Shown one piece after another: positions 313 through 20,299 of a DNA stretch of 64,000 nucleotides. The stretch is taken from the NCBI GenBank assembly GCA_964491475.1, contig CAZBFO010000001.1, positions 189,265-253,264 of the forward strand, given 5' to 3'. This stretch comes from an uncultured Gammaproteobacteria bacterium (GTDB taxonomy: Bacteria > Patescibacteriota > Patescibacteriia > SG8-24). A program made the translations under genes and the position numbers. The notes under the pieces were generated by a model. The model saw only the letters and a list, made by a program, of their open reading frames with translations. It had not been told where the DNA came from and ran no database searches. The first letter of the stretch is position 1; every line of letters starts with the position of its first letter.

Positions 313-427
313 ACGGCGGCATCGGCCCCGGTCAGCGATATGCGGAGGGGAGCGACGGGCGTCTCGACGCCTTCGCTGACCGCTTATCGCTTTTCTTTTT
401 CCCGAAGCCCCCGCCGCACCCAAAGCC

Positions 428-1243
428 ATGCCCACGCGCAACCCCAACCGAACCCGCAACGCCGTCATCGCCATCGTGGCGGTGCTGCTTTTGGCCATGG
501 GCGCCTTCAAGCCCGTGTCCGCGCCGCTCAAGCGCCTGGTCGCCAACGCCGCCGCGCCCGCCTACGCCGCCGGCGCCGGCATCAGCCGCGCCGCCGCCCG
601 CCTGTTCGACAGCAGCGAAAAGGACAAGGCCGCGCTGGAATCGCAGATCGACCAGCTGCGCATCGAGAACGCCAAGCTGCGCGAGCTGGCCGTGGAGAAC
701 GGCGCGCTCAAGACGGCCATCGGCTACAGCGAGAAGTCCGGCCTGAAGCCGCTGACCGCCCGCGTCATTTCCGAATCGGACGAGGACGTCTTTCACGGCC
801 TGGTCATCGACCGCGGCGCCGACGACGGCGTCAAGCCGGACCAGCCGGTGGTCGTCGGCGAAGGCATCGTCATCGGCAAGATCTTCGAGACCAAGGCGGG
901 CACCGCGTCGGTGCTGCTGCTGTCGGACTCGCGCAGCAGGCTGGCCGTGACCGTGCAGAGCAGCAGCGGCACCGCCGGCGTGCTGGAAGGCGACCGCGGC
1001 TTGAGCATGACCATCAACCTGATCCCGCAGACGGTGACGCTCTCGCCGGGCGACACGGTGGTGACTTCCGGCATCGAGGCCGGCATCCGCCGCGGCCTGG
1101 CGGTCGGCGTCATCGACAAGGTGGTCCAGCACACCCAGGACCCCTTCCAGTCGGCCACGGTGCTGCCGTTCGACAGCGCCGCCCATCCGCCGTTCGTGCA
1201 GGTGCTGACGGGCGACGTCGGCGCGGACGGCGAAAAGAAGTAG
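428..1243 (+). CDS. mreC: Rod shape-determining protein MreC
   Basis: N-terminal TM segment, coiled-coil LRIENAKLRELAVENGALK, then a beta-rich C-terminal domain. It is syntenic between mreB and mreD. Confidence 0.8.
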   Translation: MPTRNPNRTRNAVIAIVAVLLLAMGAFKPVSAPLKRLVANAAAPAYAAGAGISRAAARLFDSSEKDKAALESQIDQLRIENAKLRELAVENGALKTAIGYSEKSGLKPLTARVISESDEDVFHGLVIDRGADDGVKPDQPVVVGEGIVIGKIFETKAGTASVLLLSDSRSRLAVTVQSSSGTAGVLEGDRGLSMTINLIPQTVTLSPGDTVVTSGIEAGIRRGLAVGVIDKVVQHTQDPFQSATVLPFDSAAHPPFVQVLTGDVGADGEKK

Positions 1244-4480: not shown

Positions 4481-5977
4481 ATGGAAAACCACGAAGAAAA
4501 AGAACCGAATCCGCTGGAGGAACGCTCCGCACGACTCGGCAAATTGCAGGCCGCAGTCGCCATGGGCATCCAGCCGTACCCCTCACGCTGCGAGCGCACC
4601 CACACCATCCAGGAAGTGCAGCACGGTTTTGATACTCTCGCAGGGGAGTCCACCGAAGTGACGGTGACCGGCCGCCTCAAAGCCGTCCGCGGCCACGGGG
4701 GAGCCTGCTTTGCCGACCTCGAGGACGGCACCCAGAAGATCCAGTTGCACCTCAAGAGCGACGTCCTCGGCGCCACGTCCTTCGAGACCTTCGAGAAGCT
4801 GGTGGACCGCGGCGACTTCATCCAGGTGAGCGGCACCTGCTTCGTGACCAAGCGCGGCGAGCGCAGCATCGAGGCCAAGCGCTGGACCTTGCTCACCAAG
4901 TCCCTGGCCCCGCTGCCCGACAAGTGGCACGGCCTGACCGACACCGAAGCCCGCTACCGCCGCCGCGAGCTCGATTTGATTTCCAACCCCGAAGTGCGTT
5001 TGCTGTTCAAGAAGCGCTCGCTGTTGGTGAGCGAACTGCGCCACTTTATGGAAGAGGAAGGCTTCATGGAAGTGGAGACTCCCGTGCTGCAGGGCATCGC
5101 CGGCGGCGCCACCGCCCGCCCGTTCATCACCCACCACAACGCCCTGGGCATCGATATGTACCTGCGCATCGCCACCGAGCTGCACCTCAAGCGCCTGGTG
5201 GTCGGCGGCTTTGAGCGCGTCTACGAGATCGGCCGCATCTTCCGCAACGAGGGCATCGACCATCTCCACAACCCCGAGTTCACCACCATCGAGTTCTACC
5301 AGGCCTACGCCGACTACAACGACCTCATGTCCATGACCGAGCGCATGCTGGCGCGCCTGGTCGAGCGCGTCTGCGGCACGCTGATCGTGGAGCACGACGG
5401 CGCCAAGATCGACTTTGCAGGCACCTACCCGCGCCTGACCTTCCGCGACGCCATCAAGCAGTACGCCGACATCGACATCGAGAACTTCCCCACGCGCCAC
5501 GAACTGGCCGCCGCCGCCGAAGCCAAGGGAGTCAAGGTGGAACCCAAGGACGACCGCGGGGCGATTTTGGACAACCTCTACAAGAGGACAGTCCGCGGCA
5601 GCATCGTCGACCCCACCTTCATCATCGACCACCCCACGGAGATTTTGCCGCTGGCCAAGCGCCGAGCGGACAATCCGAACTACGTGGAGAGCTTTCAGTT
5701 GGTTTTGGGGCGTGGTGTGGAGTTGATAAAAGCCTTTTCCGAGCTTAATGATCCGCTGGATCAGCGGGCGCGCTTTGAGGAGCAGGAGAAGTTACGGGCT
5801 GGGGGAGATGATGAGGCTCAGCCAATGGATGAGGAGTTCATCGCGGCTCTTGAGGCCGGCATGCCGCCGACGGCGGGGTTTGGGATGGGGATTGATCGGT
5901 TGGCGGCGCTTTTGACGGGATCGCATTCTTTGAAAGAAGTGATCTTGTTTCCGACTTTACGGCCGGAGGAGAAATAA
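4481..5977 (+). CDS. lysS: Lysyl-tRNA synthetase (class II)
   Basis: N-terminal OB fold followed by class II motifs ([26 protein letters not shown]; GMGIDRL). Confidence 0.9.
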
Positions 5978-5985
5978 ACATTGCT

Positions 5986-7104
5986 ATGAATTACTACGTC
6001 AACCTATTCTCACCGGAAACCGCGGAAATTTTTTCGCGTTCCGGTAAGAACATAAGCGGCTTCCGTCTGACAAAAAAAACTTACGTTGAGAACAGAAAAA
6101 TCGGTCCGGGGGACCGATTCATTTGTTATGTAACACGCATTCAACGCTTTATTGGCGTTTTAGAAGTTGTCAGCGACCCGTTCGTTGATAGCTCTCCAAT
6201 TTTTGACAAAGAAAATGACCCATTTGTCCTCCGCTTTAAGGTAAAGCCGATGGTATGGCTTCCGCTCGAAAAAGCACTGCCAATTCATGACAAAGCCATT
6301 TGGAACAACCTGTCTTTTACCAAAGGACTTGGGGATGATAGCAATAATTGGACTTACATGGTTTTTTCAAGTCCAAATCATTGGCCGACTGGAGATTGTG
6401 TTTTTCTTGAAAAGAAACTGCTTGGCCAAGCAGAGGACCAAGTTGATTTTCCGTTTAGCGAAGATGACCAGAAGAAACTTAAACCCCAAAAAATTAAGCT
6501 TCCTGGGAAGAAAGCTGTAGCCGTAACGATTCCGGAAGATGAGGAGGTCCCAGATACAGCAGAACAAACTACACCAAAAGACAGTGAACGCGAGTCACTT
6601 ATTGTCCAATCTAAGTTAGCCGAGGTTGGCGAAAAGCTCGGCTTTAAAATTTGGCTACCACGAAACGACAGGGCAGCCATCATCGGAATGTGGAAACCGC
6701 GGCCAGATTCTCTACTTGAAGAGCTGCCGTTTTCTTTTGACGACGCAACCACTCGAACCATAAAAAATATCGATGTACTATGGGTTAAAGGTCGTACAAT
6801 TGCTAGGGCTTTTGAGGTGGAGGGCACCACATCAATATATTCTGGTATTTTGAGGATGGCCGACCTCCTATCACTCGTACCGAACATTGAAATCAAGATC
6901 CACATCGTTGCGCCAGACGGGAGGCGCGAGGAAGTGTTTAAACAAATATCTCGCCCAGTTTTTGCGATAATGGAAAAAGCACCTCTGGCAGAGCTCTGTA
7001 CCTTTATCTCCTATAGTTCGGTATACGAACTGGCCTCTGAGAAAAGATTAGATTTAATGAAAGAATCCGTAGTCGATGAATACGAGGAAGCCTCCGAAGA
7101 GTAG
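5986..7104 (+). CDS. Hypothetical protein with an N-terminal PUA/EVE-like domain and a C-terminal putative nuclease-like domain; candidate modification-dependent (Type IV) restriction enzyme
   Basis: GC drops abruptly at the lysS stop. The N-terminus (MNYYVNLFSPETAEIF...GPGDRFICYVT...FIGVLEVVSDPF) resembles EVE/PUA-like folds. The C-terminus (IDVLWVKG...AFEVEGTT) shows a possible D...ExE/K nuclease-like strand pair. A Type II R-M lies adjacent. Confidence 0.4.
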   Translation: MNYYVNLFSPETAEIFSRSGKNISGFRLTKKTYVENRKIGPGDRFICYVTRIQRFIGVLEVVSDPFVDSSPIFDKENDPFVLRFKVKPMVWLPLEKALPIHDKAIWNNLSFTKGLGDDSNNWTYMVFSSPNHWPTGDCVFLEKKLLGQAEDQVDFPFSEDDQKKLKPQKIKLPGKKAVAVTIPEDEEVPDTAEQTTPKDSERESLIVQSKLAEVGEKLGFKIWLPRNDRAAIIGMWKPRPDSLLEELPFSFDDATTRTIKNIDVLWVKGRTIARAFEVEGTTSIYSGILRMADLLSLVPNIEIKIHIVAPDGRREEVFKQISRPVFAIMEKAPLAELCTFISYSSVYELASEKRLDLMKESVVDEYEEASEE

Positions 7105-7573
7105 TTATATAACTCTTGTGCGCGACAAACAAAAAGATCACACGGTACTCGTCTTCGGCACATTCGACCTGCTTCACCCAGGCCATCTTGCGTTTCTACG
7201 TGCGGCAGCAAAGTACGGCTCAGTGACGGCCATCATAACGCCCGATGCGAAAGTCAAAATAGAGAAAGGGAAAGCACCACACTTTTCTGAACAAGAGAGG
7301 ATGCTTATGGCCGCGGCCATTAAGTATGTCGACCATGTCGTTCTGGGAGACAATGGTACAAAATGGAATGTAGTACGCAATCTGGCGCCTGACGTTATTT
7401 GCGTTGGCCATGACCAGAACGCCAATCACCCAAAGTTCCTCGCGCAGTTGGCGCTGCTAAAAAAGCTTCCGAAAATTGTTCGGCTGCCCAGCCTTAAATC
7501 TTCGCGCTACTCATCCTCAAAAGTTAAGCTTGAAATACACAAAGCCAAACAAAACGAAGCAGCCGCTGATTAG
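7076..7573 (+). CDS. Cytidylyltransferase-like nucleotidyltransferase (RibL FAD synthase / TagD glycerol-3-phosphate cytidylyltransferase family)
   Basis: VLVFGTFDLLHPGHLAFL is the (H/T)xGH nucleotidyltransferase motif. ...VVLGDNG... and PDVICVGHDQ align with archaeal RibL. The gene is low GC and overlaps the upstream ORF by 29 nt, so the true start may be an internal or alternative codon. Confidence 0.55.
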   Translation: MNTRKPPKSSYITLVRDKQKDHTVLVFGTFDLLHPGHLAFLRAAAKYGSVTAIITPDAKVKIEKGKAPHFSEQERMLMAAAIKYVDHVVLGDNGTKWNVVRNLAPDVICVGHDQNANHPKFLAQLALLKKLPKIVRLPSLKSSRYSSSKVKLEIHKAKQNEAAAD

Positions 7574-7765: not shown

Positions 7766-8959
7766 ATGCCTACACAAAAATTCATTTTCCAGGGCATTAC
7801 TTCGGAAACACACAAATCTGGTGTTGCATGGCTTTTGGCAACTGCAGATATCCAAAAAATCTTAATGAGCGTGGCCTTCATCAGCGAAGAAGGTGTGGCA
7901 CAGATTGAAAATGATTTGCGAAGCCACGCGACAAGTACCGAGTTTTTTGCAGGGATCCGTAATGAGATAACTTCTCGTCAAGCACTCGCCCGTCTCATTG
8001 GTTTAGGCGCGACTTTGTTTACGGTTGATACCGGTTCAAAGGGCACGCTTTTCCATCCAAAGTTATACTTTGCCAAAGGGCAAAATTTTGCGCGTCTCAT
8101 AGTGGGTAGCGCAAACCTGACTGCTGGTGGCCTCAACGATAATATTGAAGCCAGTATCGCCCTCGAGCTCGATCTTGCTCAAGCCAATGATTCTGCGCTC
8201 AGCGACGATGTCGAGCGGCTGTTGGGTGACATGGTATCCAATCATCCCAGTAACGTAAAAAGAATTTCTGCCGCCACCGAGCTTGATGTGCTACTGAACA
8301 ATGGCTTATTAATTGACGAAAGCCTCGCCGCGCCCCCTCGCGCGGCGACTAAAGGATCTAGCCCGTCGAGCGATATTGTTCCCCGGATTCAGCTGAGCAC
8401 CACCCGGCTGAACCGCATCGTCGCACGCGCACGCACCACTCCTCGACAGGTTCCCCAAGCCGCCAGGGCGGGCCGCTCAACCCAAGCCTCGCCACAAGCA
8501 TCTCCAGCTCCTTTGCTGACCGGGATTGAATTGGTATGGCAAAGCAAACCCCTGGAGGAAAGTGACCTAAACATCCCGAGCGGCAACAACACCCACCCCA
8601 AGGGCTCCATGAGCCTCGATCAGGGTACCCTAGACCCCTCGGTTGATTTCCGTCATTACTTCCGAAATACCGTTTTTCCGCAATTAACTTGGACGGTGAG
8701 TACACGCACCCCTGACGGAGAAGAGGCCAGCGCAAAGTGTGAGCTAATTGTAAAAGGGATTTCCTACGGAGTACATGAATTGACTATCAGTCACCACACA
8801 TCAACGACATCGACCACCTACAGGCAGCGAGGCCCGACGACCCGTCTTCGATGGGGCGCCATGAAAAGTCTTGTAGCCACTCCCGTTTTGCTTGGCCGAA
8901 CACTTTCACTTTACAAGAATACCGCAAGTTCAGACCGCTTTGTTATTGATATTGACTGA
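7766..8959 (+). CDS. PLD-family (HKD nuclease) restriction endonuclease, BfiI/NgoAVII-like
   Basis: HPKLYFAKGQNFARLIVGSANLTAGG carries the HxK...GSxN PLD motif. It is followed by a C-terminal domain of DNA-binding size. Its 3' end overlaps a convergent N6A MTase. The start is taken at the internal Met (MPTQKF) because the longer ORF begins inside the promoter. Confidence 0.6.
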   Translation: MPTQKFIFQGITSETHKSGVAWLLATADIQKILMSVAFISEEGVAQIENDLRSHATSTEFFAGIRNEITSRQALARLIGLGATLFTVDTGSKGTLFHPKLYFAKGQNFARLIVGSANLTAGGLNDNIEASIALELDLAQANDSALSDDVERLLGDMVSNHPSNVKRISAATELDVLLNNGLLIDESLAAPPRAATKGSSPSSDIVPRIQLSTTRLNRIVARARTTPRQVPQAARAGRSTQASPQASPAPLLTGIELVWQSKPLEESDLNIPSGNNTHPKGSMSLDQGTLDPSVDFRHYFRNTVFPQLTWTVSTRTPDGEEASAKCELIVKGISYGVHELTISHHTSTTSTTYRQRGPTTRLRWGAMKSLVATPVLLGRTLSLYKNTASSDRFVIDID

Positions 8960-10596
8960 GCGTTATTTTGCTCGGACGCGGTTCTTTGCCGTCGATTTCG
9001 GAGATTTATCCAATTTTCAAAAATCAACTCTCTTTCGGTTGCCGTCAAGCCCAAATCACCCAAGAGCTTGCGATCCTGCTTGCCCAGCACCGCCTCAGTG
9101 GACAAAGTTCGGACGTCATAATCGAGCTCCTTGATGTTAATCTTCACTCCCTTGGGCATGGGAATCAGCAGTCGCTCGATCTCGGACGGAACAAGTTCCA
9201 ATACACCTCCGCCGTAATGCCTACCCTCCAGCTCCGCACTTAACGAGGTGAGCGAATTTACGAAATTACCGACCAAGACATTCCCCGAAACGCTGTTTGG
9301 CTTAATTCTATATGCAGTGTCAGTGGTAAAAGCGTTTAGCTTGTTCACAATAAGCCTCGGAGTATTGCTCGAACGCTTAAGCATGCCAATCTCGGTTGCA
9401 TGCACAGAAGGAACGGAATACCAAGGCTTTCGAACGCTACACTTATAGCGAGTGTTCAGCTTTTGCCGTTCGCCAAACGCAATGTATTTTCTGGCGGCGG
9501 CATCCTTTGCTGCTGACTTATCAGGGAACCAGATGAAGTTTGTCGGGTAGCCCTTTTGAGCGTTCTCTGCGTGCTGCCGAGCGTCGTAAATAACCCCGGG
9601 GCAGTGCCCACTCCTCCCGAACATCGGGTGTGACCATTTCTCCAACCCATACTCTTGGACGGTATCATCATCCACCAGAAAAAAATCGTTCGCGCCGGTC
9701 ACGATGCCAACGTCGACTGCTGCAATATCAATGAATTGTTTTACGTATTCTTGGTTTGCCAGATCTGACAGAATCGACCGCATCTTTGACGCAAGGAGTG
9801 CGTAGGTCCACTTTCCCTTATTGACATCCGTGTTCATCAACTTTGGCGCGTTAAACACCTCAGAGGGATTCAACTTTAGAAACTCTTTTCCTTGCACAGG
9901 ATAAATGCCGACGCCTTCATTAAAGCCCTTGGGGCCGCGGCGTTTTTCAGCCATCAAGAGGACCGCACCCTGGAGCGTATTACCAAACCAGATTTCCTGA
10001 GGGTCAACGATTACGACTCTCCGACACTCTCGTCCAAGAAATGCTCGCAGCGAGCCAGCGTGGGCTACGTGGATTATTTCCGAAGGCACCACCATCGCCA
10101 AACGACCTCCAGGCCGAAGCATCGCAAGGGATGCTGCAATAAATGGCACCCACGCGTTCGTATGCTTAGTGAAGTCGAGGTTTAGGTGCGAAAAAATTTG
10201 CGCGGCACGTGCTTGGAATTTCTCTGGTAGATACTGATAGCGGATGAATGGCGGATTACCCAAAATGGCATCGAAGGTGGTGTTACCGCGCATTTCTTCG
10301 GTTGCCCAGCCGAGATAGTCACCCTGAACGATTCTTGCCTTCGGAAGAAGACCGCGTACTCGCCTCGCAGACTTCGCGGCCTCGTCTTCGTCCAGCTCAA
10401 GGCCGGTGACGGTGCTATTTGCAAATCCACCAACCTTCGCGAGTGCTTCAAAAAAAATTCCGTCCCCGCAACTAGGCTCGAGGATGTTTGCCGGCTTAAT
10501 TTCCTTCACCCAGCGGCTCAAAAAAACTGCCAAATCTAAGGAAGTGTAGTAGCCGCCCCTAAGCTTTTGTGCACTCTCATTAGCCCTAAAGTTCAT
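8911..10596 (-). CDS. N6-adenine-specific DNA methyltransferase (gamma class, Eco57I/TaqI-like) with a C-terminal target-recognition region
   Basis: ILEPSCGDGIFF is the SAM-binding FxGxG motif and AILGNPPFIRY is catalytic motif IV (NPPF). The gene is low GC and sits opposite the PLD nuclease. Confidence 0.8.
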   Translation of the reverse strand: MNFRANESAQKLRGGYYTSLDLAVFLSRWVKEIKPANILEPSCGDGIFFEALAKVGGFANSTVTGLELDEDEAAKSARRVRGLLPKARIVQGDYLGWATEEMRGNTTFDAILGNPPFIRYQYLPEKFQARAAQIFSHLNLDFTKHTNAWVPFIAASLAMLRPGGRLAMVVPSEIIHVAHAGSLRAFLGRECRRVVIVDPQEIWFGNTLQGAVLLMAEKRRGPKGFNEGVGIYPVQGKEFLKLNPSEVFNAPKLMNTDVNKGKWTYALLASKMRSILSDLANQEYVKQFIDIAAVDVGIVTGANDFFLVDDDTVQEYGLEKWSHPMFGRSGHCPGVIYDARQHAENAQKGYPTNFIWFPDKSAAKDAAARKYIAFGERQKLNTRYKCSVRKPWYSVPSVHATEIGMLKRSSNTPRLIVNKLNAFTTDTAYRIKPNSVSGNVLVGNFVNSLTSLSAELEGRHYGGGVLELVPSEIERLLIPMPKGVKINIKELDYDVRTLSTEAVLGKQDRKLLGDLGLTATERELIFENWINLRNRRQRTASEQNNAQSISITKRSELAVFL

Positions 10597-12575: not shown

Positions 12576-13187
12576 CTACGCCGTTACACGATCGAGAAAG
12601 CGGCATGCATTCGCCTGCAATGAACGCCCAACGATGCTCCGCGCGGCTTGTATGGCATCACCGCAGTTGTCGAAGACGAACGCGCGGTCCTTTTGACGGA
12701 ACAGGCGCTTGAACTCCGAATGATTTGCCCGTGCGTCTTGCTCGATTCCGTCCGGCTCCAGGGAACGAATCCTGCCGGTCATTCGGACGTCATGGTGCCG
12801 GCGACGTAGCACGGCATCAGTCGAAGCATTGAGCATAAAGTACGCCCTGCCGTACGGCCGAAACGCCTCGTCCCACATGCACTCGCGGCGCGTAATTCCA
12901 TTCTGCCTGATGCAGACAACCAAGTGCATCTCGCAGACGATCAACGGCGCCTGAGCGTGCAGGGCAAACGCCCTGAGCAGCGCCGATCGCAGCACCTCCC
13001 GCTTCGCAATAACGGATATCCGCTCAATCTCCTCACGGGAAGCGCCGTCGAAGGCGTGCCGCAAGACCTCCGAGCTCGATATCCGCACCGATCCTCTGAC
13101 CATGCTGACCGAGTGACCTGCTATGGTCGATTTTCCGACGCCGTTGATGCCGAACAGAAAGCAGACGTTTTTCATGATGGCCTCCAC
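12576..13187 (-). CDS. P-loop NTPase, small nucleotide/nucleoside kinase-like protein
   Basis: FLFGINGVGKSTIAG is a Walker A motif. Its size of about 200 aa fits NMP-kinase or shikimate-kinase-like folds. It lies downstream in the same orientation as the Ham1-like and ThyA-like genes. Confidence 0.5.
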   Translation of the reverse strand: MEAIMKNVCFLFGINGVGKSTIAGHSVSMVRGSVRISSSEVLRHAFDGASREEIERISVIAKREVLRSALLRAFALHAQAPLIVCEMHLVVCIRQNGITRRECMWDEAFRPYGRAYFMLNASTDAVLRRRHHDVRMTGRIRSLEPDGIEQDARANHSEFKRLFRQKDRAFVFDNCGDAIQAARSIVGRSLQANACRFLDRVTA

Positions 13188-13238: not shown

Positions 13239-14201
13239 CTATTCAGGAGAAGCAAAGCGGCTTAGGAATCTGGCCAGCGCAGGCACCTCGGAAGTCCTGC
13301 CGCGCTCTTCGGGCGGCATTTCCGCATAGGTCAGTCCCGCGGGATTGGCAGCGGTCACCGGAATCAAGATCTTATCCATCGGGTACGAAGGGAACGTGCC
13401 TCGGGGTTCTTCGGAAAACCTGACCGGCACCTCGCTCACTTCCACGGACATCTGGAAGCCGTCAAAGAACGCGGCGGCGTTTCGTCTGCTCCCGTTTCGG
13501 TTTTCGACGCCCGCCAGGAGCCGCAACAGGCCCTCCGGCTTCAATTTGGTTGCGGCCTGTTTGGAGTTCGGACCGGGAAAGCCCTCATAGGCGTCCATGA
13601 AAATGCCGCCGTCGGTGCAGAGCACCGGTCTTCCCACGATTGCGTATGCACGTCGCGCCTTGTCGTCGGCAATTTTCTCGATGCTGTCATGTTTCAGTTC
13701 TGGAAGATCAAAGTCGCAAGCGTGGAGGTGCGGATGTTCGACCGCCGAACGCATTTCGCGCAACTTCATCGGATTGCTGGTGACAAAATAAACGGAGTCG
13801 GGGAACGGCCGATGGAATGCGACGACCGTGACACCAGTTTCTTCGTCGTCAGACTGCGCGGTCGGCACCCAGCCGAGTCCGCGCATCGAGCTGCGAATCC
13901 ACCTCGGATCAAAACCGCCGCAGGTACGAACGCGCTCAAAGTCGAAGACCGCATACGTGCCGACCCGAGACAGCCTCGTGAGCTCGGCCATATGCAACTG
14001 CGCTTCGACCTTGTCCGCCGTCAGACGGAGCACGTTCCTCGACGTGAGCACGTCGAACGCGCAAGGCGTCACTGGCATGCCTAACATGATCACCTCCAAA
14101 CACCTTGGCGACTCCAATGCGTCAAGCACTCCCGTGAGCACCGTTTCAAAACGCACGATGTTTCGCCTGCTTACTTCCTCGTTCTGCATGTCGACTCTCA
14201 T
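13239..14201 (-). CDS. Fusion protein: unknown N-terminal domain joined to a Ham1/ITPase-like non-canonical NTP pyrophosphatase domain
   Basis: The C-terminal half carries VYFVTSNPMKLREM (Ham1 S/TxNxxKxxE motif), DFDLPE and DGGIFMDAYEGFPGP. The start is chosen at the Met (MRVDMQ) that overlaps the upstream ThyA-like stop in an ATGA arrangement. Confidence 0.55.
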   Translation of the reverse strand: MRVDMQNEEVSRRNIVRFETVLTGVLDALESPRCLEVIMLGMPVTPCAFDVLTSRNVLRLTADKVEAQLHMAELTRLSRVGTYAVFDFERVRTCGGFDPRWIRSSMRGLGWVPTAQSDDEETGVTVVAFHRPFPDSVYFVTSNPMKLREMRSAVEHPHLHACDFDLPELKHDSIEKIADDKARRAYAIVGRPVLCTDGGIFMDAYEGFPGPNSKQAATKLKPEGLLRLLAGVENRNGSRRNAAAFFDGFQMSVEVSEVPVRFSEEPRGTFPSYPMDKILIPVTAANPAGLTYAEMPPEERGRTSEVPALARFLSRFASPE

Positions 14202-14971
14202 ACCATTCCCGCCATTAACGGCATTAACCTTGGCATCTTTTGCGCGGCGCACTCATTTAGGTACGAACTGACCGTCTCGAGAGCGGCATCATAGGTGTTC
14301 TGATAGATGTGGCCGTCCGTAATCATTCCGTCGATGAAGCCCATGCGTACCGGCGCACTGAGCGTTGACGACAACCGACGCCCCACCTCCTGCGCCAGCA
14401 GTGAGAAAATCACCAAATCGCTGACGTTCTTCTGGAAGATGTCCTGCGAACGCATGTTGTAAATGGTGTTGAGCATGTAGCCGTTGTCGTTCTTGCGGAG
14501 ACGGAACTGCAACGAAACGATACAGGGGAGATAGTCGTTATAGGGCGAATCCAGCACCTTGCCGTAATCCTCGTACGTCGGGAACACCATGACCGCCTTT
14601 TTGGATTCGGGAATTTCCGTCAGCCGTTTCACCACGAAATCGATCATTCGCCCCTCATGCAGCCTCGCATGATAGCTTTTCGCGCCCACGCGAAAGTTCG
14701 GCGTGATGTCGAAGTCTTCCATGACGGGGGACTCGAACACCAGACGGCGCATCTTCTCGATGTTGGCGGCGTTGCCGTAGCGCTCGACCAAGAAATCCTT
14801 TTCGCCGTGCGACCGCACCTTGAGCCGAAGCATCGGCAATGCGAACCTGCCCCGGTTCTCGTCGGGATCGTAAGCCCCGTTCTTAATGACGCACTCGACT
14901 GCCGCCAACCAAGCCTCACCGATAGTGTCTCCGGCAACCGAGTAGCCGAAGCATTCGTGGAAATTAATCAT
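14198..14971 (-). CDS. Thymidylate-synthase-fold pyrimidine C5-methylase/hydroxymethylase homolog
   Basis: [10 protein letters not shown] aligns with the ThyA PCH catalytic Cys loop. [20 protein letters not shown] aligns with [28 protein letters not shown] aligns with GDTHLY. Aligned by eye, Asp occupies the position of the specificity Asn of E. coli ThyA. Confidence 0.6.
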   Translation of the reverse strand: [257 protein letters not shown]

Positions 14972-15152: not shown

Positions 15153-15569
15153 ATGGGTGATTTTCTAAAACGTTTCTTGGAATGGTCACAGCTTAAAATG
15201 GCACTGCATCAATTGCACAAAACGGTGCGATGCAAGGAGCGCGAAATATGGTGGGTGCACCTAGGGGTAAACGTAGGCGACGAAGAGGACGGCAAGAATG
15301 CGTCGTTCGAAAGACCAGCTATCATCATTAGGAGATTTTATGGCGGCAAGATACTTTGGGTTATTCCTCTCACAACATCAAAGAGAGATGGCGATTATTA
15401 CTTCAGCACCCGCTACACTAACTCAAACGGAAAAGTAATTGATCAATTCGCCATGATCCCGCACTTACGTGCAATCAGCCAAAAAAGGCTGGTACGCAAA
15501 TTGCGGATGCTGTCGAAAATCGAGTTCTCATCGTTAGCAGAACGAATAAAACAGTTCTTGGACACATAA
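15153..15569 (+). CDS. MazF/PemK-like endoribonuclease toxin homolog (orphan; no adjacent antitoxin ORF)
   Basis: REIWWVHLGVNVG...ERPAIIIRRF...ILWVIPLTTSKRDGDYYF parallels MazF GDLIWVDFDP...RPAVVLSPF...CLCVPCTTQSKGYPFEV. Confidence 0.5.
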   Translation: MGDFLKRFLEWSQLKMALHQLHKTVRCKEREIWWVHLGVNVGDEEDGKNASFERPAIIIRRFYGGKILWVIPLTTSKRDGDYYFSTRYTNSNGKVIDQFAMIPHLRAISQKRLVRKLRMLSKIEFSSLAERIKQFLDT

Positions 15570-17165: not shown

Positions 17166-18908
17166 CTACTTCTCGGCGGCCAAAGCGTCGAAAAGGCCGT
17201 CGAAGAACTTGGAGACGGATTTCCTGCCGCGCGCCTCCTTTGCGACCAAAAACTGAAAATGCGTTCGCTTGAGGTTGGTGTTGGCAATGTGGCGGCTGTG
17301 AAAGGTCTCGAGCATCTTCTTGCCGTCATAGAACTCGCGCCGGCGGCCATCCTTCTTTATCGAGGCCACTGCAACCTCGGCATTCTTTTGGAGTTTCGCG
17401 ACCTCCTCTGCCGAGAATTTCATCTGAAGCTCTGCAATGAAATCTCCGACCTGCTTCGCGAGCTCGGTGAGCGGCCGCTTCGGGCGGAAACCGTGAAAAC
17501 CGAGAGCCTTGTGGACCCGTCGCTCTATCTCATCCGCCTCCATCTCGTCGGAAATTTTGTCGAGCGCCGCGACAACGTCCTCCTTCGATTTCAGGTCTGT
17601 CTGCTCGACTACGACCTCAATTGCCCTCCAGATGGCGTCAGGATCAATGAGGAAGTTCTCGACCACGGACACAGGTAGGACAAACACGTCCTCGGGCACC
17701 TCTGGCGGAAAACCGACATCCTGATCGACCAAGGCGAAGACCTTGAGGCCACTGCTAAATCCGTCGAGCGCGCTCGAAAGACGCGATCTCAAGCTCATGC
17801 ATTCACTTTTTCCTCCACCAGGGATAACGGTGGCTCCGTCAAACCTTTGGCTAAGTGCACGGAAGAGTTTCCGCGCGCCGACGGCATTCTTCGCCTGCTC
17901 ATCACCCACGCCCTCTGCGATGATGACTGGCTGCATCGCGGTCAGATTGGAAGTACTGCCGAACAGCTCGCGCAAGACGGACAGACGCTCGTCATCGGCG
18001 GCAATCGGAATCAGCTGGTTTTCTCCGTCGGCCACCAGCTCGACTGGCCGCATCAGAAATAGCTCCTCAAAGGATGCATTCTCTACAATGGACGGGGAGT
18101 GGGTCGCAACAATCACCTGTGTATCCTCTTCGGCGGCAAGCACGCGGAGGTAGTCGAGCACTTTCATCTGCAAGTTCGGGTGCAGGTGTAACTCCGGTTC
18201 GTCTATGAGAACACACAAGTCGGTCTTGGCCTTGGGGGCGGAGCGACCATGAAGACCGTCGAGCGCCTCACGAACACGATGTTCGATCAGGGGATAGAAC
18301 ATCTGGATAATCGACTTCTCGCCAGAACTCAGGTCATCGAGGTCCACTTCAGTCGGCTTGCCGTGGACACGCCACACGCACCGAATGTTATCGCGATTCG
18401 ATGTGTCGATCTTCACGAACTCAAGGTGCGGCAATAGACTCTTCGTTAGAGCGCGAAACGGCTCCCAGACGTCGTCGATGGTGCCCTTGAGAATCTCTTG
18501 ATCTCGGTCGAATCGCGCCGTGATAGCTTCCTTCCTGCCAACGTCGATCTGGCAGAGCCCGTGCTTCAGGTAGTTGTATGCGTCATCAACGTTCCACGCG
18601 TCGCGGCTTCCACCCGCAAGAAGATTGATACCCTCGTAGCCCGATACCGATGTCTGTGTGAGGATTTCCTCCAGCTTGATGTCCTGACTTGCTAGGTGGC
18701 GTTGTTGCACTGTCTGCTTGCGCATGGCGCGAGCGGGGCCAACGTAGAGTACGCCGCTGGTGCGGCCGCCGGAGTTTCGGAGTTCGTTCAGGAGTGTGGA
18801 TTTGCCGCAGCCGTTCGGACCGGCGATGATCATCAGACTCGGGACAGCGACGCACTCGGCGAGCCGAACGGCCCGCTTATCGGTGATTTTGAATTCGGGA
18901 ATGCGCAT
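17166..18908 (-). CDS. OLD-family nuclease (ABC-type ATPase with a C-terminal Toprim domain), standalone class 1
   Basis: Walker A GPNGCGKST, signature-like LSSGEKS, Walker B LCVLIDEPELHLHP and H-loop ATHSP are present. The C-terminus carries VIIAEGVGDE...LVDQD Toprim acidic motifs. The start is taken at the internal Met (MRIPEF). No helicase or other partner gene is adjacent. Confidence 0.7.
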   Translation of the reverse strand: MRIPEFKITDKRAVRLAECVAVPSLMIIAGPNGCGKSTLLNELRNSGGRTSGVLYVGPARAMRKQTVQQRHLASQDIKLEEILTQTSVSGYEGINLLAGGSRDAWNVDDAYNYLKHGLCQIDVGRKEAITARFDRDQEILKGTIDDVWEPFRALTKSLLPHLEFVKIDTSNRDNIRCVWRVHGKPTEVDLDDLSSGEKSIIQMFYPLIEHRVREALDGLHGRSAPKAKTDLCVLIDEPELHLHPNLQMKVLDYLRVLAAEEDTQVIVATHSPSIVENASFEELFLMRPVELVADGENQLIPIAADDERLSVLRELFGSTSNLTAMQPVIIAEGVGDEQAKNAVGARKLFRALSQRFDGATVIPGGGKSECMSLRSRLSSALDGFSSGLKVFALVDQDVGFPPEVPEDVFVLPVSVVENFLIDPDAIWRAIEVVVEQTDLKSKEDVVAALDKISDEMEADEIERRVHKALGFHGFRPKRPLTELAKQVGDFIAELQMKFSAEEVAKLQKNAEVAVASIKKDGRRREFYDGKKMLETFHSRHIANTNLKRTHFQFLVAKEARGRKSVSKFFDGLFDALAAEK

Positions 18909-19081
18909 AATAAAAAGTGATATTGACTGGCCGATCTTAGCACTCGCAACGGTGAAGTGCCAAGAGCGTTTAGACCCAAGGTTCTTGAGCCGTGACCGGA
19001 GCATCAAGTACCGATCCAAACGGTTTTCCCATATCCACACCCCGTTGTTTTTCCCGCGCCCAAGTGTCAAAATAAGCTCAC

Positions 19082-20299
19082 ATGCCGCACCGGCCCTCCG
19101 GTCTGTTTTCGCCGTGCAGTTATCCCCATATCGAAAATATCGCCATGCCCTCTGCCGCCAAAAGACCCTATAAAACCTGGGTGGAAGTCTCCAAAAGCGC
19201 GCTGCTGAACAACGCCCTGGTGTTGAAGTCTGCGGCTGGCCGCAAGACGATGCTGATGTCGGTCATCAAGTCGAACGCCTACGGCCACGGCATTGCCGAG
19301 ACCGTCCGCGTGTTGGCCAAGGGGCCCACGGACTGGTTCGGCGTCGACTCCGTCCGCGAGGCCGAGCTGGTCCGCGCTTCGGGGACCAACAAGCCGATCC
19401 TGGTGCTGGGCTACACGCCGTTCAGCGACGCACTGCGCGCGGTCAAACAGGGGTTCAGCCTCACGGTCTACAACCGCGAGAACATCGCCGCCCTGAACAA
19501 AGCGGCCACGGCCAAGCGTCCGGCCAAGATCCACCTCAAGCTGGAGACGGGCACCTCGCGCCAAGGGCTTCTCAAAAAGGACCTGCCCGCGTTCCTGACC
19601 TTCCTCAAGAAGCGCAAGAACGTGGTGCTCGAAGGCGTCTCCACCCACTACGCCAACATCGAGGACACCACCGACTCCACCTACGCCATGGGGCAACTGG
19701 AGCGGTTCCTCACCATGGTCGCCACGGTCCGCCATGCGGGGTTCGACCCCAAGCTGGTGCACACGGCCTGCTCTGCGGCGGCGCTGCTGTATCCGGAGAC
19801 GCACTTCACCATTGTCCGCGCGGGCATCGCGCAGTACGGACTGTGGCCTTCCAAGGAAACGAAGGTGTCGGCCATCCTGAAACGGAAGAGCATCATCCTG
19901 AAACCGGCGCTCACCTGGAAGACCATCGTGGCGCAGGTGAAGACGCTGCCGGAAGGCGCACCGGTCAGCTACGGTCTCACCGAGAAGCTGGCGCGCGAAT
20001 CCAAAGTGGCCGTGGTGCCGGTGGGGTATTGGGACGGGTTTGATCGCAAGCTGTCGTCGGTGGGGCACGTGCTGGTGCGTGGCAAGAGCGCCAAGGTGCT
20101 GGGCCGCGTCTGCATGAACATGTTCGTGGTCGACGTCACCGACATCCCGGGCGTGCGCGTGGAAGACGAAGTTGTGCTGCTCGGCAGGCAGGGCAAAGAA
20201 GTCATCACTGCCGAAGACATCGCTTCATCAGTCGGCACCATCAACTACGAGATCGTCACGCGCATCAATCCGCTGATTCCTCGCGTCCTGGTTTCCTGA
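19082..20299 (+). CDS. alr: Alanine racemase
   Basis: VIKSNAYGHGI is the PLD-lysine motif. A C-terminal beta domain is present. The true start may be the Met at about 19145 (MPSAAKRPYK). Confidence 0.85.
   Translation: MPHRPSGLFSPCSYPHIENIAMPSAAKRPYKTWVEVSKSALLNNALVLKSAAGRKTMLMSVIKSNAYGHGIAETVRVLAKGPTDWFGVDSVREAELVRASGTNKPILVLGYTPFSDALRAVKQGFSLTVYNRENIAALNKAATAKRPAKIHLKLETGTSRQGLLKKDLPAFLTFLKKRKNVVLEGVSTHYANIEDTTDSTYAMGQLERFLTMVATVRHAGFDPKLVHTACSAAALLYPETHFTIVRAGIAQYGLWPSKETKVSAILKRKSIILKPALTWKTIVAQVKTLPEGAPVSYGLTEKLARESKVAVVPVGYWDGFDRKLSSVGHVLVRGKSAKVLGRVCMNMFVVDVTDIPGVRVEDEVVLLGRQGKEVITAEDIASSVGTINYEIVTRINPLIPRVLVS

Follow-up and report, generated by a model that had tools for sequence, protein, structure and literature searches.

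Many bacteria attack phages with modified DNA by means of proteins in which a modified-base reader is fused to a nuclease, and several of these enzymes now serve to map 5mC and 5hmC. In enzymes of the MspJI/AspBHI and PvuRts1I/AbaSI types, an SRA-like reader of modified cytosine is joined to a PD-(D/E)xK-type nuclease that cuts at a fixed distance. Background on these types is also given by PMC6765204 and PMC11037411. The characterised fusions of an EVE domain to a nuclease are EVE-HNH members only; they include TspA15I and VcaM4I, which are proven 5mC/5hmC-dependent restriction enzymes (PMC6765204, PMC7897488). Residues Q10/T11/E15, W82 and Y130 belong to the pocket of VcaM4I, and the linker of that enzyme keeps the nuclease off the DNA until the reader is engaged (PMC7897488). 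Removal of reader and linker together turns VcaM4I into a toxic nuclease that lacks specificity. Fusions of EVE to a PD(D/E)XK nuclease were catalogued by Bell, Wolf and Koonin in 2020 as putative Type IV restriction endonucleases (PMC7641849), and Lutz et al. describe PUA-PD-(D/E)XK fusions as rare, with YenY4I, which has a different architecture, as the only one tested (PMC6765204). R.NmeDI of Neisseria meningitidis is a protein of 351 aa that cleaves 12/7 nt to either side of RCCGGY and so releases fragments of 25 bp; its gene overlaps that of its C5 methylase (PMC2095814). In the review of Pingoud et al., NmeDI is a symmetric Type IIS enzyme made up of a recognition domain, a linker and a non-specific C-terminal cleavage domain (PMC4081073).

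Here we analyse a gene whose 372-aa product (ORF 5986..7104) consists of an EVE-like reader, a linker and an NmeDI_C nuclease-like domain. The C-terminal ~170 aa of this protein are homologous to those of R.NmeDI, and cleavage at a fixed distance is expected on that account (PMC2095814, PMC4081073); however, whereas the N-terminal half of NmeDI recognises unmodified RCCGGY and the enzyme is paired with a C5 methylase, the protein described here has an EVE reader and no cognate methylase. Like the MspJI/AspBHI- and PvuRts1I/AbaSI-type enzymes, it joins a putative reader of the PUA superfamily to a putative cleavage domain that is modelled with a restriction-endonuclease-like fold, but the reader is of the EVE/PH1033 kind instead of SRA, the nuclease is NmeDI_C, and the domain order differs from that of some of these enzymes; no sequence similarity to either type was detected. 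The archaeal proteins PH1033 (P. horikoshii) and MJECL36 are stand-alone, single-domain UPF0310 EVE proteins without a nuclease. As for Mrr, there are relatives of our protein that carry Mrr_N instead of EVE in front of NmeDI_C, but the protein itself lacks the winged helix. Mrr has a catalytic domain of a different family. END nucleases, which are iEndoIII fusions, were considered and set aside as unrelated. In architecture the protein falls within the EVE-PD(D/E)XK class of Bell, Wolf and Koonin, and since such fusions have already been catalogued as putative Type IV enzymes, it adds to a known, predicted kind. An earlier reading of the locus from its letters alone (the sequence-only reading) had called EVE-nuclease fusions a known architecture of modification-dependent restriction, which is correct in that EVE-HNH fusions are proven and EVE-PD(D/E)XK fusions predicted (PMC7641849). 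The main text of PMC7641849 does not mention NmeDI or PH1033, and no paper that links NmeDI to EVE or to Type IV enzymes turned up in the literature searched.

An intact gene directly downstream of lysS

The gene lies in a window of 64,000 nt (the whole stretch of DNA that was analysed), and its ATG at position 5986 is separated by 8 nt from the TAA stop codon (5975-5977) of the lysS ORF (4481..5977). The sequence-only reading had delimited the same ORF and had placed its beginning just past the lysS stop, where GC content collapses. Both points hold: every peptide quoted from the ORF is present in its translation, and GC content drops from 0.62 in lysS to 0.44 in the EVE-nuclease gene, with values of 0.49-0.52 for the next three genes and 0.61 for the whole window. 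A promoter scan returned no promoter-like site within the 8-nt gap, the closest plus-strand match lying inside lysS (5723-5752), and the gene is therefore likely to be transcribed by read-through from lysS. The possible ribosome-binding site and the other features of the locus are collected in Table 1. A protein identical to the window protein is on record (P0001). Of the family positions with at least 90% conservation, only five differ in the window protein, all of them conservatively; the protein therefore looks intact.

Table 1 Coordinates of the EVE-nuclease gene, its parts and its downstream neighbours, numbered from the first letter of the window
Feature	Position	Strand	Residues	Basis or remark
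Possible ribosome-binding site, GGAGGAG	5965..5971	+		Inside lysS 3' end, 14 nt before ATG; sequence read directly
EVE-nuclease gene (gene under study)	5986..7104	+	372 aa plus stop	Complete ORF; ORF list
PUA-superfamily EVE domain, PH1033/UPF0310 type, putative modified-base reader	5986..6435	+	aa 1-150
FSPET loop after strand 1, candidate base-edge contact	6007..6021	+	aa 8-12	Invariant in 83 relatives
Stretch with W91, W106, W122, candidate aromatic pocket for flipped base	6256..6351	+		Conservation
Helix, then charged linker (basic, then acidic)	6436..6585	+	aa 151-200
NmeDI_C domain, restriction-endonuclease-like alpha/beta fold, putative non-specific cleavage module	6586..7101	+	aa 201-372
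Candidate catalytic D...ExE triad: D263 (before strand 2), E277-V-E279 (end of strand 3)	6772..6822	+		Conservation and models
R290-M-A-D293 on helix after strand 3, candidate DNA contact, dimer contact or active site	6853..6864	+		Conservation
Cytidylyltransferase-like gene	7076 or 7118..7573			Overlaps EVE-nuclease 3' end; internal GTG at 7118 removes overlap
PLD/NgoFVII-like nuclease gene	7685 or 7766..8959			Convergent with the methylase gene below; 49-nt overlap
M.Eco57I-like N6-adenine methylase gene	8911..10596	-		PADLOC MTase_II, 1e-182; 1.8 kb downstream, same low-GC segment

The N-terminal domain is a putative base reader of the PH1033 branch of EVE

The N-terminal domain matches the Pfam EVE family (PF01878) marginally, with 23.1 bits against a gathering score of 23 (E=8e-5, aa 34-98), and NCBIfam PRK00809 over aa 1-113 (E=1.4e-8); several homologues carry precomputed PF01878 matches. 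When the PDB was searched by sequence, the sole match was PH1033, the UPF0310 protein of Pyrococcus horikoshii, at E=0.0016 over aa 1-144, or E=0.00043 when the query was a profile of 36 sequences. On the strength of the EVE, PRK00809 and PH1033 matches we therefore assign the domain to the PUA superfamily, as a reader of the PH1033 branch of EVE. The model of the domain agrees with the five-stranded mixed beta "pseudobarrel" fold common to EVE, YTH and ASCH, and the proposal that the N-terminal ~130 aa are EVE/PUA-like is thus borne out by sequence matches and fold alike. In structural comparisons the reader lies nearer to PH1033 and to YTH domains than to the EVE domain of VcaM4I, which binds 5mC/5hmC, and its best functionally characterised matches are YTH domains bound to m6A RNA. 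The domain is, in structure, closer to YTH than to the bacterial EVE domains with known ligands.

Conservation suggests where a modified base might be held. The FSPET loop is a candidate equivalent of Q10/T11/E15 of VcaM4I, as judged from its position in the fold, not from superposition. W106 and W122 are found in 83 of 83 relatives and W91 in 81 of the 83; together these tryptophans are candidates for the walls of a pocket that would receive a flipped base, given their conservation and a positional analogy with W82/Y130 of VcaM4I.

The C-terminal domain resembles the cleavage module of NmeDI

Residues 198-363 align to positions 172-338 of the PADLOC REase_II model PDLC03534 (E=9.5e-16), whose 351 positions equal the length of R.NmeDI, and both P0001 and all of the homologues listed have a precomputed match to Pfam PF27126 (NmeDI_C) with E at most 1e-5. 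In its model (pLDDT 96) the domain is built around an alpha/beta core like that of restriction endonucleases, and the structural neighbours of the domain are restriction or nicking enzymes that act on DNA. Sequence searches of the PDB with the protein and with the 36-sequence profile gave no match to this domain.

Candidate catalytic residues are D263, E277 and E279, which are present in 83 of 83 relatives and in at least 90% of 114 representatives with various N-termini, and which the models place on adjacent strands. Such a D...ExE arrangement is known from BamHI (D94/E111/E113). The lysine of the canonical PD-(D/E)xK motif is absent, its place being taken by E279. E216 was tried as a catalytic glutamate on helix 1 and rejected, as only 44 of the 83 relatives conserve it. 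R290, D293, H306 and R323 likewise occur in all 83 family members, and the R290-M-A-D293 motif is invariant in these and also across 114 and 95 representatives with other N-termini. From the homology to NmeDI, the modelled fold and the invariant D263/E277/E279 we infer that the C-terminal domain is a nuclease. The sequence-only reading had noted in the C-terminal third a spacing reminiscent of a PD-(D/E)xK-like core; NmeDI_C homology and the modelled restriction-endonuclease-like fold support a nuclease-like domain, but with the lysine replaced the motif is not the canonical one. Fold prediction, which had been put forward as a check, shows a PUA-like reader together with a restriction-endonuclease-like core.

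Between the two domains, residues 170-200 are modelled at low confidence (pLDDT 26-31), and the linker is partly conserved, with K164, I170, K176 and P183 found in close relatives. By analogy with the linker of VcaM4I, it may be autoinhibitory or may act as a spacer.

NmeDI_C occurs behind interchangeable N-terminal modules

Clustered at 50%, the matches of an exhaustive HMMER search with the C-terminal domain come to 1,499 representatives, of which 174 have values below 1e-30. NmeDI_C is C-terminal in almost every representative, behind an N-terminal region of 40 to 305 aa. An EVE-type N-terminus is shared by 48 of the 114 representatives examined, and nine have Mrr_N (best E=2e-30), the N-terminal domain of the Type IV enzyme Mrr, to which this version of the fusion is a parallel. 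Further N-termini consist of Mrr_N with a weak EVE match, ParB_N with HTH_ParB, DnaA_C, or an HNH-associated repeat, and the remaining ones comprise several unrecognised families and one TIR-like region (TIR_2, E=0.015, sub-threshold). Examples of such fusions are P0124 (314 aa, Mrr_N plus NmeDI_C) and P0204 (Mrr_N plus EVE plus NmeDI_C). A Type IIS-like cutter would be expected to combine one cleavage module with exchangeable modules that bind DNA or modifications, and the domain combinations point to interchangeable modification sensors on one NmeDI_C module. That NmeDI_C serves as a general plug-in module for cleavage is indicated by its fusions to Mrr_N and ParB.

The same fusions bear on the nature of the target. 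An EVE/YTH-like domain might read a modified base in tRNA, rRNA or viral RNA, with the C-terminal domain cleaving RNA: EVE/PUA domains have long been regarded as RNA binders (PMC6765204), the best characterised structural matches of the reader come from complexes with m6A RNA, and some Type IV-like systems are predicted to target RNA (PMC11090510). [quoted passage not shown]

A related possibility is that the PUA-type domain responds not to a base within DNA but to a modified nucleotide in free form, or to some other small danger signal set free during infection, and that binding activates the nuclease as an abortive-infection effector. There is a precedent in a PUA-Calcineurin-HAD module, reported in a preprint to be triggered by m6-dAMP from the degraded host methylome (bioRxiv 10.64898/2026.01.15.699771); moreover, the reader is YTH-like and YTH domains read m6A, an m6A methylase is encoded in the same island, and one relative of the nuclease module is the protein with the weak, below-threshold TIR-like N-terminus, which would hint at use as an effector. 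The nuclease module, however, derives from a Type IIS enzyme, in which it acts while linked to a domain for DNA recognition, the other fusion partners (Mrr_N, ParB) are DNA-binding domains, methylase adjacency is rare among homologues, and the protein shows no sign of oligomerisation or filament elements. We accordingly give this possibility a slim chance only.

A conserved family with a patchy distribution in bacteria and archaea

A protein search over 5.8 billion proteins returned 4,161 homologue clusters, most of ~372 aa. The best 120 of these clusters are all full-length, with 60-70% identity, and come from Taylorbacteria, Pacebacteria, Draconibacterium, Deltaproteobacteria, Marinilabiliales and an Aenigmarchaeote. 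When one genome per species was considered, at least 394 of 185,579 species representatives (~0.2%) encode a relative; the best 80 of these 394 matches are 47-69% identical to the window protein and belong to CPR groups, Proteobacteria, Nitrospirota, Acidobacteriota, Bacteroidota, Planctomycetota, Chloroflexota, Cyanobacteria and Bacillota, as well as to several archaeal lineages. Pairwise identity among 83 members ranges from 44 to 100% (median 55%), and 79 positions are at least 97% identical. PHROGs contains no model that matches the protein. Horizontal spread is therefore indicated by the patchy distribution over bacteria and archaea, taken with the foreign composition of the gene in the window.

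Conservation of this degree across phyla, which we judge unusually high for a restriction enzyme, could also speak for a role outside defence: the protein might be a repair nuclease that recognises lesions, a nuclease of the selfish or homing type, or a DNA-binding protein without catalytic activity. In keeping with such a role, housekeeping genes surround many of the loci, the gene in the window comes immediately after lysS and probably shares its transcript, and the canonical catalytic lysine is missing. On the other hand, presence in ~394 of 185,579 species representatives is too patchy to resemble a housekeeping function, the gene is compositionally foreign in the window, integrases, transposases or other defence genes adjoin some loci, and the invariance of the acidic triad argues against a dead enzyme. 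A non-defence role thus appears improbable.

The gene has no regular partner and no methylase of its own

To look for conserved partners, flanking ORFs of ~80-87 loci from different species were compared by all-against-all BLAST. No neighbour was conserved across these loci; the one group that clustered consisted of Parcubacteria loci that are nearly identical to each other. In a Pfam scan, the 149 ORFs nearest to the gene on either side matched 214 different families, with a DNA-methylase domain in only four of the ORFs; the Eco57I methylase was the commonest family, found in these four and accompanied by MmeI_Mtase in three of them, and no C5 methylase was among the 25 most frequent families listed. 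Methylase neighbours are missing in ~95% of the homologue loci, and the idea of a methylase partner as a rule was rejected on the basis of the scan. At the loci of the Aenigmarchaeote, of another archaeal contig and of CPR bacteria the gene stands alone amid housekeeping genes, at the Draconibacterium locus it adjoins an integrase, at Taylorbacteria loci a tiny HTH_3 ORF lies directly upstream, and at some further loci integrases, transposases or other defence genes are next door.

In the window, the gene had been said to be followed by a Type II restriction-modification pair. The pair does lie downstream, but a cytidylyltransferase-like gene intervenes. Within the pair, the PLD/NgoFVII-like nuclease is the obvious natural partner of the M.Eco57I-like methylase, and the EVE-nuclease is therefore solitary. 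Further DNA methylases in the window were considered and rejected: NPPY-type motifs elsewhere fall in a glycosyltransferase and an unassigned ORF. A functional link to the cytidylyltransferase-like gene was considered and rejected, since this gene is not conserved beside homologues. At one archaeal locus a cytidylyltransferase-like gene lies 2 kb away on the other strand, which we regard as coincidence.

To be solitary is the hallmark that separates Type IV nucleases from Type II enzymes. No cognate protective methyltransferase was found for the EVE-nuclease, neither the window nor the homologous loci provide the adjacent cognate methyltransferase of a Type II or IIS system, and an EVE fold stands where NmeDI has its N-terminal recognition domain. 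A conventional Type IIS-like enzyme that cuts unmodified DNA and is restrained by the methylase at 8911..10596 would nevertheless account for the match of the C-terminal domain to a PADLOC Type II restriction enzyme model, for the kinship with NmeDI, a Type II enzyme with a cognate methylase, and for the M.Eco57I-like N6-adenine methylase in the same low-GC segment, and the short HTH_3 ORF upstream in Taylorbacteria could then be a controller protein. We consider such an enzyme very improbable: the methylase gene is convergent with and overlaps by 49 nt that of the PLD/NgoFVII-like nuclease, an obvious partner; ~95% of homologue loci have no methylase neighbour and no neighbour of any kind is conserved; the gene is alone in Draconibacterium, CPR and archaeal loci; and in place of the recognition domain of NmeDI the protein has a base reader at its N-terminus, with a PADLOC match confined to profile positions 172-338. 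We thus favour the Type IV over the Type II reading because there is no conserved neighbour and because methylase adjacency is rare among homologues.

The lysS-to-serS interval varies in two segments

A metagenomic relative, L089, shares serS and an ABC-transporter gene with the window at 85% and 79% nucleotide identity, respectively. In L089 the ABC gene and serS are ~155 bp apart, versus 3,285 bp in the window, where the insertion contains P-loop kinase-like, Ham1-domain, ThyA-like and MazF-like genes. On the other side of the ABC gene L089 has unrelated genes, one of them with a SocA_Panacea domain, and lacks in that interval the methylase, the PLD nuclease, the cytidylyltransferase-like gene and the EVE nuclease. 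The comparison on both sides of the ABC gene thus shows that the lysS-to-serS interval consists of two independently variable segments. No tRNA genes were found at the boundaries of the island, and promoter and terminator scans of the island gave nothing above shuffled expectation.

The best solved relative of the ThyA-like protein is the CMP 5-hydroxymethylase MilA, a weak match (E=0.003). The sequence-only reading had noted a putative cytosine-modification operon, to which the ThyA-like gene corresponds, within ~6 kb of the nuclease gene and had raised the question of what modification state the nuclease senses. A link between the two has no support, as the genes are not conserved beside homologues and belong to a separate variable segment, and the ThyA-like gene is ~7 kb distant. 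We also rejected, as unsupported, a link of the EVE-nuclease to the ThyA-like, Ham1 and kinase genes as a group, which do not recur beside homologues and form a separate insertion that is missing in L089. For the source genome, the EVE-nuclease gene marks the lysS-to-serS interval as a variable, presumably defensive region.

Discussion

We propose, with a probability of about 65%, that the protein is a self-contained, NTP-independent, modification-dependent (Type IV-like) DNA endonuclease. Its architecture, its homologies and its solitary context lend computational support to the earlier suggestion of a Type IV restriction enzyme that depends on modification. In the mechanism that we envisage, the PH1033-type EVE domain would attach to DNA and take up a flipped modified base into its aromatic pocket, and the charged linker of ~50 residues would tether the C-terminal cleavage domain and set its reach, perhaps also holding the nuclease off the DNA until the reader is engaged, as in VcaM4I. 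The NmeDI-type cleavage domain would have little or no sequence specificity of its own and would cleave the two strands a short, constant distance away from the base captured by the reader, probably once two cleavage domains have paired, as happens in Type IIS enzymes such as FokI. Host DNA, being unmodified, would be spared, so that no methyltransferase would be needed. The gene itself would have been acquired by horizontal transfer into the variable low-GC segment downstream of lysS. The analysis shows the domain architecture, the homologies, the conservation of residues, the solitary context and the patchy distribution over both domains; in this scheme we infer the DNA substrate, base flipping, distant cleavage, dimerisation and the role in defence.

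As to the base that is read, a cytosine modification of the 5mC/5hmC type is the single most likely, at about one chance in three, with N6-methyladenine and bulkier hypermodified bases as real alternatives. Cytosine 5-modification is favoured because of the TspA15I/VcaM4I precedent and, weakly, because N6-adenine methylases adjoin the gene here and at a few loci without apparent conflict; m6A stays in play because the reader is YTH-like in shape. We entertain as an unlikely, broader interpretation that the protein represents a widespread and conserved single-gene restriction family, common to both domains, whose PH1033/YTH-like reader may recognise something other than 5mC/5hmC, be it N6-methyladenine, a bulky hypermodified base or a free modified nucleotide, and whose nuclease makes an NmeDI-like cut at a fixed distance. 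If the reader does recognise such a ligand, this would be the first function for PH1033-type archaeal EVE proteins and possibly a new enzyme for mapping modifications.

The C-terminal domain already has a Pfam family, and what deserves attention is the breadth and conservation of the protein family, its PH1033-type reader and its Type IIS cleavage module. Because the family is well conserved and extends from CPR bacteria to archaea, thousands of genes would gain an annotation from a single biochemical study, which would also show the ligand of the PH1033-type pocket.

Genomic context of the EVE-nuclease gene

The low-GC segment that holds the EVE-nuclease gene also holds a probable Type II restriction-modification (R-M) pair, consisting of a gene for a PLD/NgoFVII-like nuclease and a gene for an M.Eco57I-like N6-adenine methylase, which are convergent and overlap by 49 nt. 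Between this pair and the EVE-nuclease gene lies a small cytidylyltransferase-like gene with an island-like GC content (0.49). If the ATG at 7076 serves as its start, its first 29 nt lie within the 3′ end of the EVE-nuclease gene; with the GTG at 7118 as the start there is no overlap. Its adjacency to homologues of the EVE-nuclease gene is not conserved. At three loci from Taylorbacteria/Parcubacteria (L002, L003, and L004), the homologue is preceded by a very short HTH_3 ORF, whose end lies 3 nt ahead of the start codon and which is reminiscent of R-M controller proteins. This ORF is absent from the window and from most of the other homologue loci.

Features of the window and of homologous loci
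Feature	Position	Strand	Evidence or locus
Hairpin	6099-6119	both	terminator scan
Cytidylyltransferase-like gene	7076(7118)-7573	+	RfaE domain II/TagD-like; phrog_7878
PLD/NgoFVII-like nuclease gene	7685(7766)-8959	+	weak Pfam and PADLOC matches
M.Eco57I-like methylase gene	8911-10596	-	PADLOC MTase_II, 1e-182
Block between ABC-transporter gene and serS	12576-15569
Gene in block	12576-13187	-
Gene in block	13239-14252	-
Gene in block	14198-14971	-
Gene in block	15153-15569	+
634-aa ATPase gene	17166-19070	-	sub-threshold, retron/Septu effector ATPase PtuA, 1.3e-14
333-aa ORF	19067-20068	-
HTH_3 ORF	7906-7998		L002
HTH_3 ORF	7852-7998		L003
HTH_3 ORF	407-499		L004

The scan for terminators returned a hairpin, AATCGGTCCGGGGGACCGATT, with a near-perfect 9-bp stem. 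It lies within the EVE-nuclease coding region, where it spans the conserved GPGDRF codons, and is probably due to chance or driven by codon content.

Further downstream, the ABC-transporter gene and serS are 3,285 bp apart in the window, a distance filled by four genes: a P-loop kinase-like gene, a gene for a Ham1-domain NTP pyrophosphatase with an N-terminal extension of 150 aa, a distant ThyA-like gene, for which the CMP 5-hydroxymethylase MilA gives the best match in the PDB (E=0.003), and a gene for a MazF/PemK-like toxin. Because the same two flanking genes are only ~155 bp apart in a metagenomic relative (L089), the block is an insertion or a variable segment. These genes could constitute a nucleotide or DNA hypermodification pathway. 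Just past serS, the gene for a 634-aa ATPase is followed, with an overlap of 4 nt, by an ORF of 333 aa for which a search for family matches found none; the two may form another defence pair.

Conservation and domain fusions of the EVE-nuclease family

The NmeDI_C module of the EVE-nuclease follows other N-termini in relatives of the C-domain (P0124, P0204, P0214, and P0123), namely Mrr_N, Mrr_N together with a weak EVE match, ParB_N with HTH_ParB, or a weak TIR-like region (TIR_2 E=0.015, sub-threshold). Several further N-terminal families of 100-250 aa that precede the module are without a Pfam match.

Alignments of the EVE-nuclease family (A1 and A2; loci L008-L087), which span many phyla as well as archaea, give a median pairwise identity of 55% and contain 79 near-invariant positions. 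Among the near-invariant positions are parts of the "disordered" charged linker, with K164, I170, K176, and P183 in close relatives, and an acidic C-terminal tail (…DEYxExxEE). We judge conservation of this kind to be unusual for a restriction-type enzyme.
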